IMG/VR virus record: IMGVR_UViG_3300017956_000015
Span: 1-55,270 of that record
From: a virus
Lineage: Duplodnaviria; Caudoviricetes
Length of the DNA stretch: 55,270 bases
Strand: one strand, 5' to 3'
Both the position numbers and the translations under genes were made by a program. This document shows, piece by piece, positions 6,530 to 19,140 of the stretch (the stretch's first letter is position 1; the number at the start of each line of letters is the position of its first letter). Below the pieces are notes generated by a model. That model searched no databases, was not told where the DNA came from, and worked only from the letters and a program-made list of their open reading frames with translations.

Positions 6530-9500
6530 TGGCTGACAAGATAACCAATTCATTAACAAATCAAGAAGTCGTAAAACAAGGCACGAGAGAACTTCGTAGG
6601 ACTGTTCAGCACTTGCCTGCGTTCTACAGGACAGACACGAACCAGAGATTCCTGTCAAGCACCCTGGATCCGTTGGTGCAGAAAGGTTCGCTAGAAAGAT
6701 TGGATGGCTTCGTAGGCAAACAAGACGCATACACAAGGCAGATCGACGACAGGTACGTGTCAGCAACAAGCAGAGACAGGTTCGCGTATCAGTTGGAACC
6801 AACAATCACCTACACTGACAAGGACACCACATCGATCAACCCTGAGGACCAAGTCAAGTTCACAGGGACCTATGACGACTACATAAATCAAATCAAATAC
6901 TTTGGAGGCAAGGTAGGCAATCATGATAGACTAAACAAGGAAGTTGTGTATTCTTGGAATCCTGCGATTGACTACGACAAGTTGGTCAATTATAGGGAGT
7001 ACTACTGGCTGAGTGGCGGCCCTTCGGCTATCGAGATAGATTCCGTGGGCACAGGAGCAGTGGTAGAGTACAAGGTAGAGGCATTGCCAGACGACGGTTC
7101 TACGGGCAGAGCGTTCTCTTTTCCACACCTGGAGAATGAGAGAAATCCAGACATGACTCTGTGGCGTGGCAACACATATAAATTTGTGGTCGACGCACAG
7201 GGACATCCTTTTTACATAATGACGGAACCAAGCAAGGATGGTATAGGTGCAGACGGTTCTACGTCGGTGCTGTATTCAACGGGAGTCACAAACAACGGTG
7301 CTGACAAAGGCACAGTGACTTTTGTCGTACCAGACGGAGCACCAGACACTTTATATTACCAATGCGGTAGCCATGACGGCATGTATGGAATACTACACAT
7401 CCGTACAGTGGCGACCACTTCGTCAATAAATGTGCAAGATGACATTATAGGCACCAAGAATTACAAGTTGAGGACCTTGTCACTTTCAAACGGAATGAAG
7501 ATAAAGTTCCCTTCGAGCAAGGTCACATCGGATTACAAGAACAAAGAGTTCTATGTCGAAGGTGTTGGTGACGCTATTACCCTGACAGATGTCAGCAAAC
7601 TTGCAACGCCCGAGAGTTACGCCACAAATGGTGTGCCGGTAGACAAGGACTACATCACAATCAAGAGAGACAGCCTCGACCAGAACGCTTGGTCGAGATA
7701 TAACAGATGGTTCCATAGGTCAGTGATCGAGACAGCATCAACAGTTAACGGCACAACCACTGTGCTGGACGAGACCGACAGAGCAAAAAGACCAATCATA
7801 GAATTTGACTCAGGACTTTCACTTTACAATAGTGGTACAGTGGCCAAGAATCCTGTTGACCTTTTTGACACAGCGACCACGGACGCATTTTCAAATGTGT
7901 CGGGTAAATTTGGGTACATCATTGACGGTGTTGCAATAACCGACGGAATGCGTATTATTTTTTCAAAAGACACTGATGCGTTGGTACGAAGCAAAATTTA
8001 TGTGGCCAACTTTGTTGACGCAGGCGACTCTTCTGTGTTGTCACTTACTTTGAATGAAGATACAAATGGTACTGCTCTAGACAAGGACACTGTTTACGTC
8101 AAGGGCGGGAATTCCAACAAAGGTAAATCATTTTATTATGACGAGACAACAACCAATTGGAAGTCCACACAACCGAAAACAAAGTTAAACCAACAGCCGT
8201 TGTTCAACATGTATGACAATAATCATACAAGTTATGACGACGCGACAGCGTACCCTAATTCAACTTTTGCAGGAGCGAAAGTTTTCGCCTATGCCACTTC
8301 GGACACGGCAGTCACAGACACTGTGCTGGGCATAAAGGTCAAGTACAACACGATCAACAATGTGGGAGACATGGTTTTCGAGTCTGACCACACCTCAGGA
8401 ACATTCACTTACCAGGACGCTGGCAAGACGGTGACCAAGAATCTTGCGGAAGGACACCTGCACTACACCACGGGCAGGACCACACACAACAGCAAATCCG
8501 CTTGGATCAAGAGGATCAACGAAATAAAACAGCGTGTGATCAGGACACACATAGTGGACGAGACCGAAAAGCGTCTTTTCCCTATTGACTTCTATGCCAA
8601 CTCCGCATCATTGACAGATTTAGAAATTTCGGTCAAAGTCAATGGTGTGAGAAAGACACTGACTACTGACTACACTTTGGTTAACGGTTCAACCAACAAG
8701 TATGTGCGTTTTGTCAAGGAATTGAAAGTAAACGACCAGATCAGGATAGCGGGTTACAGTGCCGCTGACAAGATAGCAGACAAAGGAATATATGAGGTAC
8801 CTGAAAACTTGTCCACAAACAGTTTGAACCAGACCACAGGATCTTTCACATACGGCCAGGTACTTAAACACCTGGTAGATATCTTTGACAAGAACCAAGA
8901 TCTCACAGGAGCGATCCCAGGAAATACCAATCTGAGAGACAAGCCAGACACAAGATTAAAAGGTGGTACTATCATACAGCACCAGGGTTCATTGGTGCCT
9001 GCCATATTCAACCTCATAGATCAACAGGCCAACATAGTATCGGCGATAGATTACGTGAATCTTGAATACGAAAAATGGTACAATGCTTTCCTAACAAAGG
9101 CAACTGGCACCCCATACGAGGGCATAGCCAGAGATAGGGTTGACGAAATTATTGAATCGATCAATCAAGGCAAGAATAGTAGTTTCCCATTCTATTATGA
9201 AGACATGGTGGGTTGGGGACAGAACGTGTCCACGAGGACTTACACTGTGCAAGGCACATCACAGAAAGATTACGCAATAGATTCTCAGCACAGTATGACC
9301 GCTCTCAGCAATCGGGCAGTGTACGTCTATCACAACGATGTCCAATTGACACTGGATACCGATTACACATTCAGCACAACAGACGACAGCATCAACATAT
9401 CAAAAGCACTGGCAGTGGGTGACAAGATAGTGATAAAGGATTACGCCGACACAACTGGAAGTTATATGCCTGTCACTCCAACAAAACTTGGCATATATCC

Positions 9501-18500: not shown

Positions 18501-19140
18501 AACGCACACAACACAACTGACACAGCAGTTACTCACAGATGCAACAACAATCACTGTTGCAGACGCATCTGTGCTGGCAGATCCACAAACGGTAATTGGT
18601 TTAGATGGATCTACAGTCAGCACAGTGATCCCAGGTGTTGTGTTCATAGGCAAAGAAAGAATTGAATATTTCACAAAGACCAATAATCAACTGGGACAGT
18701 TGAAACGTGGTACTTTGGGAACAGGAATTAAGGAGCATGGCTCAGGCGCTGACGTGGTAGACGTGTCTGGAACTCAAACCATCCCTTACGTGGACACAGT
18801 GTATACCAATACCTTCACAGGAAATGGTTCTCAAACTGTGTTCAATCTATCACAAGTACCGTCATCCGCTAGTGAGTTAGACATATTCATTGGTGGCCAA
18901 CGATTGTTGCTCACTAGCGAGGACGGATCAACTATCAACTATTCTGTTGACGGAAGCACAAAGGCTGTGACATTTACAACAGCACCTGCTGACCTAGTAC
19001 AGATAAAAATATTACACAAGAGAGGACAGGTATGGTACACTGCGAAGGATGGTAATCCTGCTGATGGTAAAGGACTCCACAGTTCTACGTCACAACAGGC
19101 TCAATTCATAGCGGACGAGCCCACAAACGCACCTGAATAA
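6529..19140 (+). CDS. giant (4203 aa) multidomain virion/baseplate structural protein with a cupredoxin-like domain, FG-GAP beta-propeller repeats, CBM5/12-like domains and Ig-like beta-sandwich repeats
   Basis: Single uninterrupted Thr/Asp/Ser-rich ORF translationally coupled to gp6 (TAATG). Visible motifs: HPFYI...[16 protein letters not shown]...V.GAP repeats; W...T.Y..GD.V.Y.GKFY; GGSGY..APTVTI; C-terminal RGTLGT....H. Confidence 0.82.

Follow-up and report, generated by a model that had tools for sequence, protein, structure and literature searches.

A recurring D-[G/D]-S-T tetrapeptide in the giant baseplate-slot protein of a jumbo-phage lineage

The giant protein and its tetrapeptide

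The stretch of DNA analysed here, an IMG/VR virus record of 55,270 bases referred to below as the window, was estimated to be 16% complete and is therefore taken to be a jumbo phage fragment. One of its open reading frames (ORFs) encodes a protein of 4203 amino acids (aa), here termed the giant, in which the tetrapeptide D-[G/D]-S-T is found 20 times (Table 1). The giant gene is preceded by three baseplate genes, encoding a hub/spike protein, a gp25-like protein (PF04965) and a 1160-aa gp6-like wedge protein (phrog_10646), and its gene order matches PA5oct gp353-355 and Atu_ph07 gp180-182, with the giant in the slot after the gp25-like and gp6-like wedge genes. Across aa 1-1650 it is about 28% identical to the same-slot giants of PA5oct, Atu_ph07 and other jumbo myophages, and in a profile search of PHROGs it matched phrog_10938, 'virion structural protein' (E=0, 1167 bits). 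Judged by profile and by position, the giant is a phrog_10938-type virion structural protein in the baseplate gp7 slot. PA5oct gp355 and Atu_ph07 gp180 are similar to it in length, but their C-terminal domains are mostly unrelated to its own. Pfam placed a CBM_5_12 module at aa 1651-1680, and sequence searches of the PDB returned only homologues of CBM5/12 and a marginal match to 9s0y.

A regular-expression search of the giant found 16 DGST and 4 DDST between nucleotides 7093 and 18960, in agreement with the count, span and all quoted examples of a first-pass annotation made from the sequence alone. That annotation had also expected well under one DGST by chance, and this was borne out. T, D, S and G make up 11.4, 8.5, 8.0 and 7.6% of the giant, yet its composition predicts only 0.25 DGST and 0.28 DDST; 2000 shuffles of the protein gave a mean of 0.53 D[GD]ST (maximum 6; maximum for DGST alone 3), and a first-order Markov model expects 1.03 DGST. 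The remaining 23 permutations of D, G, S and T occur 0-2 times each, whereas S-T comes after 16 of the 43 D-G dipeptides. The near-matches reported earlier were real, with DGSS at aa 2206 and NGST at aa 719 and 3567. A composition artefact was rejected on the Markov expectation and on the rarity of the other orderings.

The codons vary between sites, with Ser encoded by AGC at 6 and by TCN at 14, and a repeat search found only imperfect DNA repeats of 18-40 nucleotides (nt) at the sites, with synonymous differences. A DNA repeat or recent duplication, which the first-pass annotation had already argued against, was rejected on these grounds. One octapeptide, G-I-G-A-D-G-S-T, occurs twice in unrelated domains (aa 238-245 and 2258-2265; window 7237-7265 and 13297-13325); its two 24-nt coding stretches, each inside a 29-nt repeat, are identical at 19 of 24 bases, and the differences are all at synonymous third positions.

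Outside the giants the motif was at the level of chance, with 5 copies seen against 4.8 expected when the remaining ORFs of the window and of five related contigs were taken together (127,753 aa, fibre genes included), and D[GD]ST was absent from the other 44 ORFs of the window. The giants of those five contigs (73-96 kb, whole contigs) contain 17-21 D[GD]ST, and a DNA-level pattern scan gave the same concentration within the giant gene. The motif is specific to one protein and characterises neither the proteome nor virion proteins at large. A proteome-wide sequon was rejected for the approximately 25% of the genome seen in each of the six contigs.

Conservation, gain and loop position of the motif

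The 120 proteins closest to the giant (66-100% identity) contain 10-21 DGST, with a median of 16, and 51 full-length giant genes from close IMG/VR loci encode 10-19. In an alignment of 61 close relatives, D[GD]ST was retained in 48-60 of the sequences at 12 of the 20 sites, and the exact tetrapeptide was retained in 0.64 of relatives compared to 0.35 for all windows. Conservation of the four motif positions was 0.80, relative to 0.664 +/- 0.045 in flank-matched control windows, a value reached by only 2 of 5000 control sets. Substitutions at the sites were conservative (DGSS, DGTT, DDST and DEST), and motif position 2 was G in 82% and D in 11% of cases, with E, A, N and S at about 1% each. Judged from these alignments the motif is selected and is not a product of chance, as had been proposed from the window alone.

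Copies of the motif become scarce outside this lineage. PA5oct gp355 has neither DGST nor DDST, Atu_ph07 gp180 has no DGST and one DDST, and 149 representatives at 30-77% identity have 0-10 DGST, all values over 7 coming from fragmentary sequences of close relatives. A tree built by a quick method from 62 rows of the conserved N-terminal 1900 aa placed the rich clade, with 12-21 DGST, as sister to a group with 6-7 (Shimodaira-Hasegawa-like approximate likelihood ratio test support for the join 89%, with the fork open); the remaining rows had 0-7, and PA5oct, Atu_ph07 and P0134 had 0. When the sites were mapped onto 144 distant relatives, only those at aa 3642, 3739 and 3780 were found to be old, with DGST in 40/133, 29/138 and 19/139 and [DN]G in 98, 69 and 46 of these, respectively. 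A small domain that is repeated in the giant has seven first-hairpin loops (aa 3417, 3454, 3567, 3642, 3739, 3780 and 4099), and these three sites are among them; in outgroups such loops read D-G-x-T with x variable. A hairpin of the GDGST kind common in phage repeats, which the first-pass annotation had expected to explain only a few copies, thus covers 3 of the 20 in this ancestral class.

The other 17 sites are new in the clade, with the motif absent at the aligned position in distant relatives. Sites 1401 and 4026 are clear insertions, and the gap fraction at the sites in distant relatives was four-fold that of all windows (0.21 compared to 0.05), a value that none of 10000 random sets reached. 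Insertions of 9 residues that bear DGST are found in the sister group too, at positions of its own near aa 2441 and 3365. On this comparative evidence the newer copies were gained stepwise along one lineage, by substitution or by small loop insertions. The earlier suggestion that sites would prove to be lineage-specific loop insertions was right in this respect; its second part, that they would co-vary with enzyme cassettes, was not upheld (see below).

AlphaFold2 models cover 15 of the sites, those at aa 189, 242, 1401, 3217 and 3259 lying outside them. The model of aa 1984-2609 had a predicted local distance difference test score (pLDDT) of 74.3 and a predicted template modelling (TM) score of 0.78, and that of aa 3405-4203 had scores of 77.9 and 0.55. 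All 60 motif residues at the modelled sites were assigned as coil by DSSP, against background coil fractions of 0.52 and 0.475. In keeping with the loop position raised by the first-pass annotation, 13 of the 15 lie in inter-strand loops, of 5-12 residues and bracketed by strands; the remaining two, 2006 and 3794, are in long or low-confidence coil. The pLDDT was at least 70 at 9 of the 15, and a strand-x-DGST-x-strand geometry was seen at 3642, 3688, 3780 and 4141, and at the family sites 3567 and 4099.

Besides an N-terminal domain and an insertion within the conserved core, sites were found in a seven-bladed propeller and in small beta-sandwich domains, confirming that the motif is not tied to one domain type. 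The propeller, which holds five of them, is predicted to be of FG-GAP/integrin-alpha type with seven four-stranded blades: FG-GAP_2 (PF14312) scored 60.7 bits against a cut-off of 23, seven blades could be aligned, and the model matched integrin alpha propellers in Foldseek (E 8e-14, TM score 0.63-0.66 on the target). Here the motif occupies the strand 3-4 loop of blades 3, 4 and 5, as well as a hairpin inserted into blade 2 and the segment joining blades 4 and 5. For the C-terminal string of domains the best Foldseek match was a chain of the cyanophage A4 portal-tail complex (E 3e-8), and PF03906 (Phage_T7_tail) matched the repeat at 17221-17469 with 18 bits, below cut-off. In the last domain, of about 65 aa, the motif lies in two successive loops (4132 and 4141), and most relatives have it in the first hairpin (4099) too.

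Table 1. Window positions of the giant gene, two of its regions and the 20 motif copies. 'Kept' counts refer to the alignment of 61 close relatives and distant counts to the mapping onto 144 distant relatives.
Feature	Position	Strand	Evidence or context
Giant virion/baseplate protein gene, carries all 20 motif copies	6529..19140	+	ORF list, translation; phrog_10938; synteny
DGST aa 189	7093..7104	+	recent gain within clade; D[GD]ST in 7/61 close relatives
DGST aa 242	7252..7263	+	N-terminal cupredoxin-like region; kept 54/61 close, 1/63 distant
DGST aa 1401	10729..10740	+	Thr/Asp-rich insertion in conserved core; kept 56/61 close; gapped in 49/74 distant relatives and in PA5oct and Atu_ph07
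DGST aa 2006	12544..12555	+	linker preceding propeller; kept 60/61; pLDDT 36 (low)
Seven-bladed FG-GAP/integrin-like beta-propeller (predicted), aa 2089-2539	12793..14145	+	Pfam FG-GAP_2, blade alignment, model, Foldseek
DGST aa 2172	13042..13053	+	inserted hairpin, blade 2; 6-residue loop between short strands, pLDDT 78-84
DGST aa 2262	13312..13323	+	strand 3-4 loop, blade 3; 12-residue loop, pLDDT 64-69
DDST aa 2323	13495..13506	+	strand 3-4 loop, blade 4; 9-residue loop, pLDDT 73
DGST aa 2342	13552..13563	+	linker, blades 4-5; DGSS in 44/61 relatives
DGST aa 2389	13693..13704	+	strand 3-4 loop, blade 5; 8-residue loop, pLDDT 88
DDST aa 3217	16177..16188	+	kept 16/61 close relatives; GTTT in 35/61
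DGST aa 3259	16303..16314	+	kept 25/61; DGTT in 18
C-terminal string of small beta-sandwich domains (predicted), aa 3405-4203	16741..19137	+	internal hidden Markov model repeats, model, Foldseek
DDST aa 3440	16846..16857	+	5-residue hairpin loop, pLDDT 74; kept 48/61
DGST aa 3642	17452..17463	+	ancestral first-hairpin loop; 6-residue, pLDDT 79-84
DGST aa 3688	17590..17601	+	recent inserted hairpin; kept 9/61 close, gapped in 43; pLDDT 57
DGST aa 3739	17743..17754	+	ancestral hairpin loop; 5-residue, pLDDT 93
DGST aa 3780	17866..17877	+	ancestral hairpin loop; 6-residue, pLDDT 88
DDST aa 3794	17908..17919	+	long coil; 22-residue loop, pLDDT 66-69
DGST aa 4026	18604..18615	+	tip of inserted hairpin; 6-residue loop, pLDDT 62; gapped in 119/144 distant relatives and 24/24 outgroup rows
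DGST aa 4132	18922..18933	+	last domain; kept 60/61; 11-residue loop, pLDDT 58-76
DGST aa 4141	18949..18960	+	last domain; kept 43/61; 6-residue hairpin loop, pLDDT 76

Neighbouring enzymes and other features of the locus

The first-pass annotation had linked the motif to co-encoded glycosyltransferases and Asp/Asn beta-hydroxylase-like enzymes. All contigs compared here are fragments (2-70% complete), and the absence of an enzyme from them is weak evidence. The hydroxylase-like genes are real: Pfam identified two PF05118 genes (27111-27734 and 28206-29060), located in a variable island at 21142-32585 between two fibre-like genes, together with a fatty-acid-desaturase-like gene, a methyltransferase and about ten ORFs without a family; GC content falls to 0.386 at 22-24 kb. 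The island occurs in 1 of 5 close DGST-rich relatives. PF05118 was found in 2 of the 5 DGST-rich close contigs and in 2 of 9 distant records, and was not found on the other 3 close contigs (76-89 kb), whose giants hold 17-19 D[GD]ST; one distant record has three PF05118 and five SPASM matches with a giant containing 1 DGST and 2 DDST. A link to these genes was rejected, as they do not co-vary with the motif. The EGF-type consensus of Asp/Asn beta-hydroxylases is C-x-[DN]-x4-[FY]-x-C-x-C, and the sites do not fit it: the giant has 5 Cys in 4203 aa, none of them adjoining a motif site, and the commonest aromatic position is +6, not +5. The pairing of a desaturase with LpxO-type hydroxylases suggests that lipid modification may fit these genes better than protein modification.

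Glycosyltransferases fared no better. None of their families was found by Pfam in the 45 ORFs of the window or by PHROGs in the 20 ORFs lacking a Pfam match, and no Glycos_transf_2 match was above cut-off in the distant records. The single weak lead is a 450-aa ORF with a language-model resemblance to glycosyltransferases (0.86, under the tool's reliable level). This ORF belongs to a sugar-modifying set at window 46499-52146 with a TobZ/NodU-type carbamoyltransferase and a DegT aminotransferase, and with an NAD epimerase/dehydratase and a PIG-L family deacetylase on the minus strand. The sugar-modifying genes mostly have homologues in 5/5 close relatives, PIG-L in only 1/5; the carbamoyltransferase was found in 1 of 9 distant records, and the giant of that record has 1 DGST.

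Five consecutive paralogous radical SAM genes lie at window 38231-44811, all matching NF033640 (N-terminal twitch-domain) with 302-411 bits against a cut-off of 170, and in three of the five Pfam placed a SPASM/twitch domain before the radical SAM core. All 5 close contigs conserve the cluster, and 3 of the 9 distant records have similar ones; a link to these genes was rejected because SPASM (PF13186) clusters are also found in relatives with 1-4 DGST. On comparison of gene content and motif counts, the proposed enzyme link as a whole is not supported. Most sites are hairpin loops conserved in relatives without the cassette, which runs largely counter to the idea that they are tags for its enzymes.

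Further observations concern the giant and the genes on either side of it. Its N-terminal region includes a cupredoxin-like segment (window 7126-7413, aa ~200-295) with a type-1-copper-style ligand set, His226 ... Cys279-x2-His282-x2-Met285. Close relatives almost always retain these ligand residues (118-120 of 120), as does part of the sister group; of the 53 distant giants compared, 3 have all four and 1 has three, with different residues at these positions in the others. Azurin and AcoP were weak PDB sequence matches (E 0.18-0.21), and no Pfam match to the segment was found. Upstream, the hub/spike protein (780 aa, window 246-2588) combines a Phage_base_V/gp5-type OB domain, a DUF2345-like segment and a C-terminal S74 intramolecular chaperone (aa 713-753), an arrangement pointing to a central spike that cleaves itself. 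The gene that immediately follows the giant's encodes a 241-aa protein (window 19150-19875; phrog_11259, function unknown) that is 90-96% identical in five relatives, compared to 71-81% for the giant itself; compared by position only, PA5oct and Atu_ph07 have ORFs of 201 and 237 aa, respectively, at roughly this place (gp357, whose product was detected in virions, and gp178).

Interpretation and comparison with known motifs

The explanation that we favour, and to which we give about an even chance, is that D-[G/D]-S-T is an Asp-box-like structural hairpin-loop motif amplified by this lineage. It would be a short, polar, self-contained beta-hairpin loop motif with a role comparable to that of the Asp-box in sialidase-type propellers, in which the Asp would cap the loop, the Gly or Asp would take a left-handed conformation and the two hydroxyl residues would close a hydrogen-bond network. 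Inherited copies would be few and would form the first hairpin of a small beta-sandwich domain of tail-fibre type. The lineage would then have re-used the same solution repeatedly while remodelling the exposed loops of the giant's peripheral domains, with new copies arising by point substitution and by insertion of 9-13-residue hairpins carrying the motif at the tip. Such hydrogen bonding by D, S and T may bring a benefit in stability, keeping folded the numerous loops that so long and beta-rich a virion protein exposes to solvent.

This structural explanation draws on the presence of the motif in the strand 3-4 loops of blades 3-5, which is where Asp-boxes sit in the published passages drawn on below, and on the ancestral hairpins, which read D-G-x-T in distant relatives and align with D-G, without S-T, in 9s0y. 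It draws also on the coil state and inter-strand loop position of the modelled sites, on the occurrence of the motif in several folds and at both ends of domains, on its restriction to one protein and on the finding that no enzyme co-varies with it. A G-dominant pattern, as at motif position 2, is allowed by turn statistics at a left-handed loop position. If the explanation is correct, a four-residue hairpin-loop module was convergently gained about 15 times in one protein, partly via new hairpins, which would be useful for understanding the evolution of very large beta-rich virion proteins and for loop design. Whichever explanation holds, the motif is a simple marker of one abundant uncultured phage lineage, for which more than 1200 protein clusters were found.

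A number of observations weigh against it, several of them left unexplained by a plain turn preference. The lineage has 10-21 copies where the same-length orthologues of PA5oct and Atu_ph07 have 0 DGST. Positions 3 and 4 are hydroxyl residues in about 95-97% of non-gap cells (in columns chosen for holding the motif), and Ser is nearly fixed at position 3 in the clade, although T, N, E, V or I can stand at the same hairpins in outgroups. The Ser codon class is fixed but different between sites and switches within some (at 3642, 19 TCN and 30 AGY), which argues that selection acts at the amino-acid level. The loops range from 5 to 12 residues, so that the sites are not structurally identical; the pLDDT was below 70 at 6 of the 15 modelled sites; and a search for a shared hairpin register by hydropathy correlation gave only r values within the null.

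Lineage restriction and the near-fixed Ser, which the structural explanation does not account for, keep a modification sequon alive as an unlikely alternative. Here the loop DGST would be recognised by a phage or host enzyme, such as an O-glycosyltransferase acting on Ser/Thr, and the sites would decorate or shield the baseplate periphery. The stepwise accumulation on one lineage, with motif-carrying hairpin insertions in both the clade and its sister group, would fit such a sequon, as would conservation of the four residues beyond that of flank-matched windows, the almost constant retention of the hydroxyls with Ser sharpened relative to outgroups, and the location of all modelled sites in loops. 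The same-strand sugar-modifying block (carbamoyltransferase, DegT aminotransferase and the weakly glycosyltransferase-like ORF), mostly with homologues in every close relative and with the epimerase/dehydratase and PIG-L genes nearby, could supply the chemistry. Against this stand the finding of no glycosyltransferase family in the 45 ORFs, the lack of co-variation of the hydroxylase-like cassette with the motif, the presence of twitch/SPASM radical SAM clusters in relatives with 1-4 DGST and of the carbamoyltransferase in a relative with 1 DGST, and the lack of enrichment in other virion proteins.

Known sequons also differ from the motif. The Bacteroidota O-glycosylation sequon is D-(S/T)-(A/I/L/V/M/T) and the N-glycosylation sequon N-x-S/T; like DGST, these are short Asp/hydroxyl motifs found on exposed loops, with many copies in one surface protein. 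DGST nevertheless fits neither, as a Gly lies between D and S and only the 4 DDST conform, so the Bacteroidota sequon named in the first-pass annotation does not describe it. In the giant, D[ST][AILVMT] was seen 28 times against 25.8 +/- 4.7 expected (reached in 682 of 2000 shuffles), and N-x-S/T and D/E-x-N-x-S/T were also at expectation. Tailed-phage virion proteins assemble in the cytoplasm, and Bacteroidota O-glycosylation substrates are exported to the periplasm. Slightly more doubtful again is the specific proposal that DGST is an undescribed baseplate sequon, most plausibly for O-glycosylation fed by the conserved sugar block and displayed on purpose-built hairpin tips. Under it, sites may have accumulated in the way that animal viruses acquire glycan sites on their variable loops, and a modification motif would for the first time be defined on the baseplate of a jumbo phage, mapped at about 20 sites. 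Phage enzymes are documented to glycosylate virions in mycobacteriophages (as cited in the passages of PMC12619734 drawn on here), and this precedent speaks for a sequon.

Improbable, in our view, is that the D/S/T-rich loops bind Ca2+, stiffening the protein, or host surface polysaccharide by multivalent weak adhesion. Contacts to sugars and metals are commonly made by D, S and T, the giant has other carbohydrate-type modules in its CBM_5_12 segment and integrin-like propeller, and the models place the sites in what appear to be exposed loops of peripheral, fast-evolving domains. The Ca2+-binding loop offered by the first-pass annotation nevertheless found no counterpart: the integrin-type loop D-x-[DN]-x-D-G-x-x-D and the DxDxDG loop have no match in the giant, neither overlaps a site, a D-x-S-x-S pattern resembling the metal ion-dependent adhesion site fits only 3 of the 20 sites, and the 12 flanking positions are poor in acidic residues (0.85 compared to an average of 1.50). 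Small domains carry sites at opposite ends, and the propeller has them on both faces (3-4 loops and inter-blade linkers); the presence of sites at both ends of domains and in several folds argues against a single binding patch; a four-residue loop, moreover, offers little surface for specificity in 20 different surroundings. An artefact of composition, low complexity, DNA repetition or inheritance from repeated domains is ruled out, for although the giant is rich in T, D, S and G, three sites and four degenerate ones derive from a repeated domain and three propeller sites are blade-equivalent, the 16 copies far exceed either chance expectation and the counts of the other orderings, codons and Ser codon classes differ, DNA repeats are imperfect and at most 40 nt long, and 17 of the 20 sites are absent at the aligned position in distant relatives.

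Returning to the structural explanation, part of the motif's history can be related to described phage domains. The repeated C-terminal domain matches positions 12-89 of the T7 tail-fibre N-terminal type domain (PF03906; 18 bits, E 6e-5 within the record) and residues 9-66 of the solved 'phage particle protein' 9s0y (E 0.02), both matches being sub-threshold. PF03906 and 9s0y have a D-G loop at the same first hairpin, without the full DGST, and this class of first hairpin explains 3 of the 20 sites and the four degenerate ones. A literature search for such a DGST motif found no naming paper, only unrelated uses of the letters, and one for 9S0Y likewise gave no relevant paper; the comparisons suggest a short autonomous hairpin motif of a kind that is already known.

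The closest known counterpart of this kind is the Asp-box, or BNR repeat. In the passages of Quistgaard & Thirup 2009 (PMC2716378) drawn on here, its consensus is (S/t)-x-(D/n)-x-G-x-(T/s)-(W/f/y), where position 10 must be aromatic; in propellers only some blades have it, surface exposed in the loop joining strands 3 and 4, beta-sandwich folds contain it as well, and a role in folding or stability is proposed. The two differ in several respects. In DGST the D and G are adjacent and the conserved aromatic is absent, its loops span 5-12 residues where those passages describe one fixed 8:8 hairpin, and it is confined to one phage lineage and one protein where the Asp-box is described as ubiquitous. 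The Asp-box pattern [ST].[DN].G.[ST][WFY] had no match in the giant, a short Asp-box pattern had none at the sites, and the Pfam scan of the giant found no BNR family. Both, on the other hand, are short hairpin-loop motifs of D, G and hydroxyl residues that recur within one protein and in several folds, and both, as far as those passages describe the Asp-box, occupy the strand 3-4 loop of some propeller blades, here blades 3, 4 and 5 of 7. The motif of the giant is thus similar to the Asp-box in behaviour, as a hairpin-loop element, and is not a member of that family by sequence.

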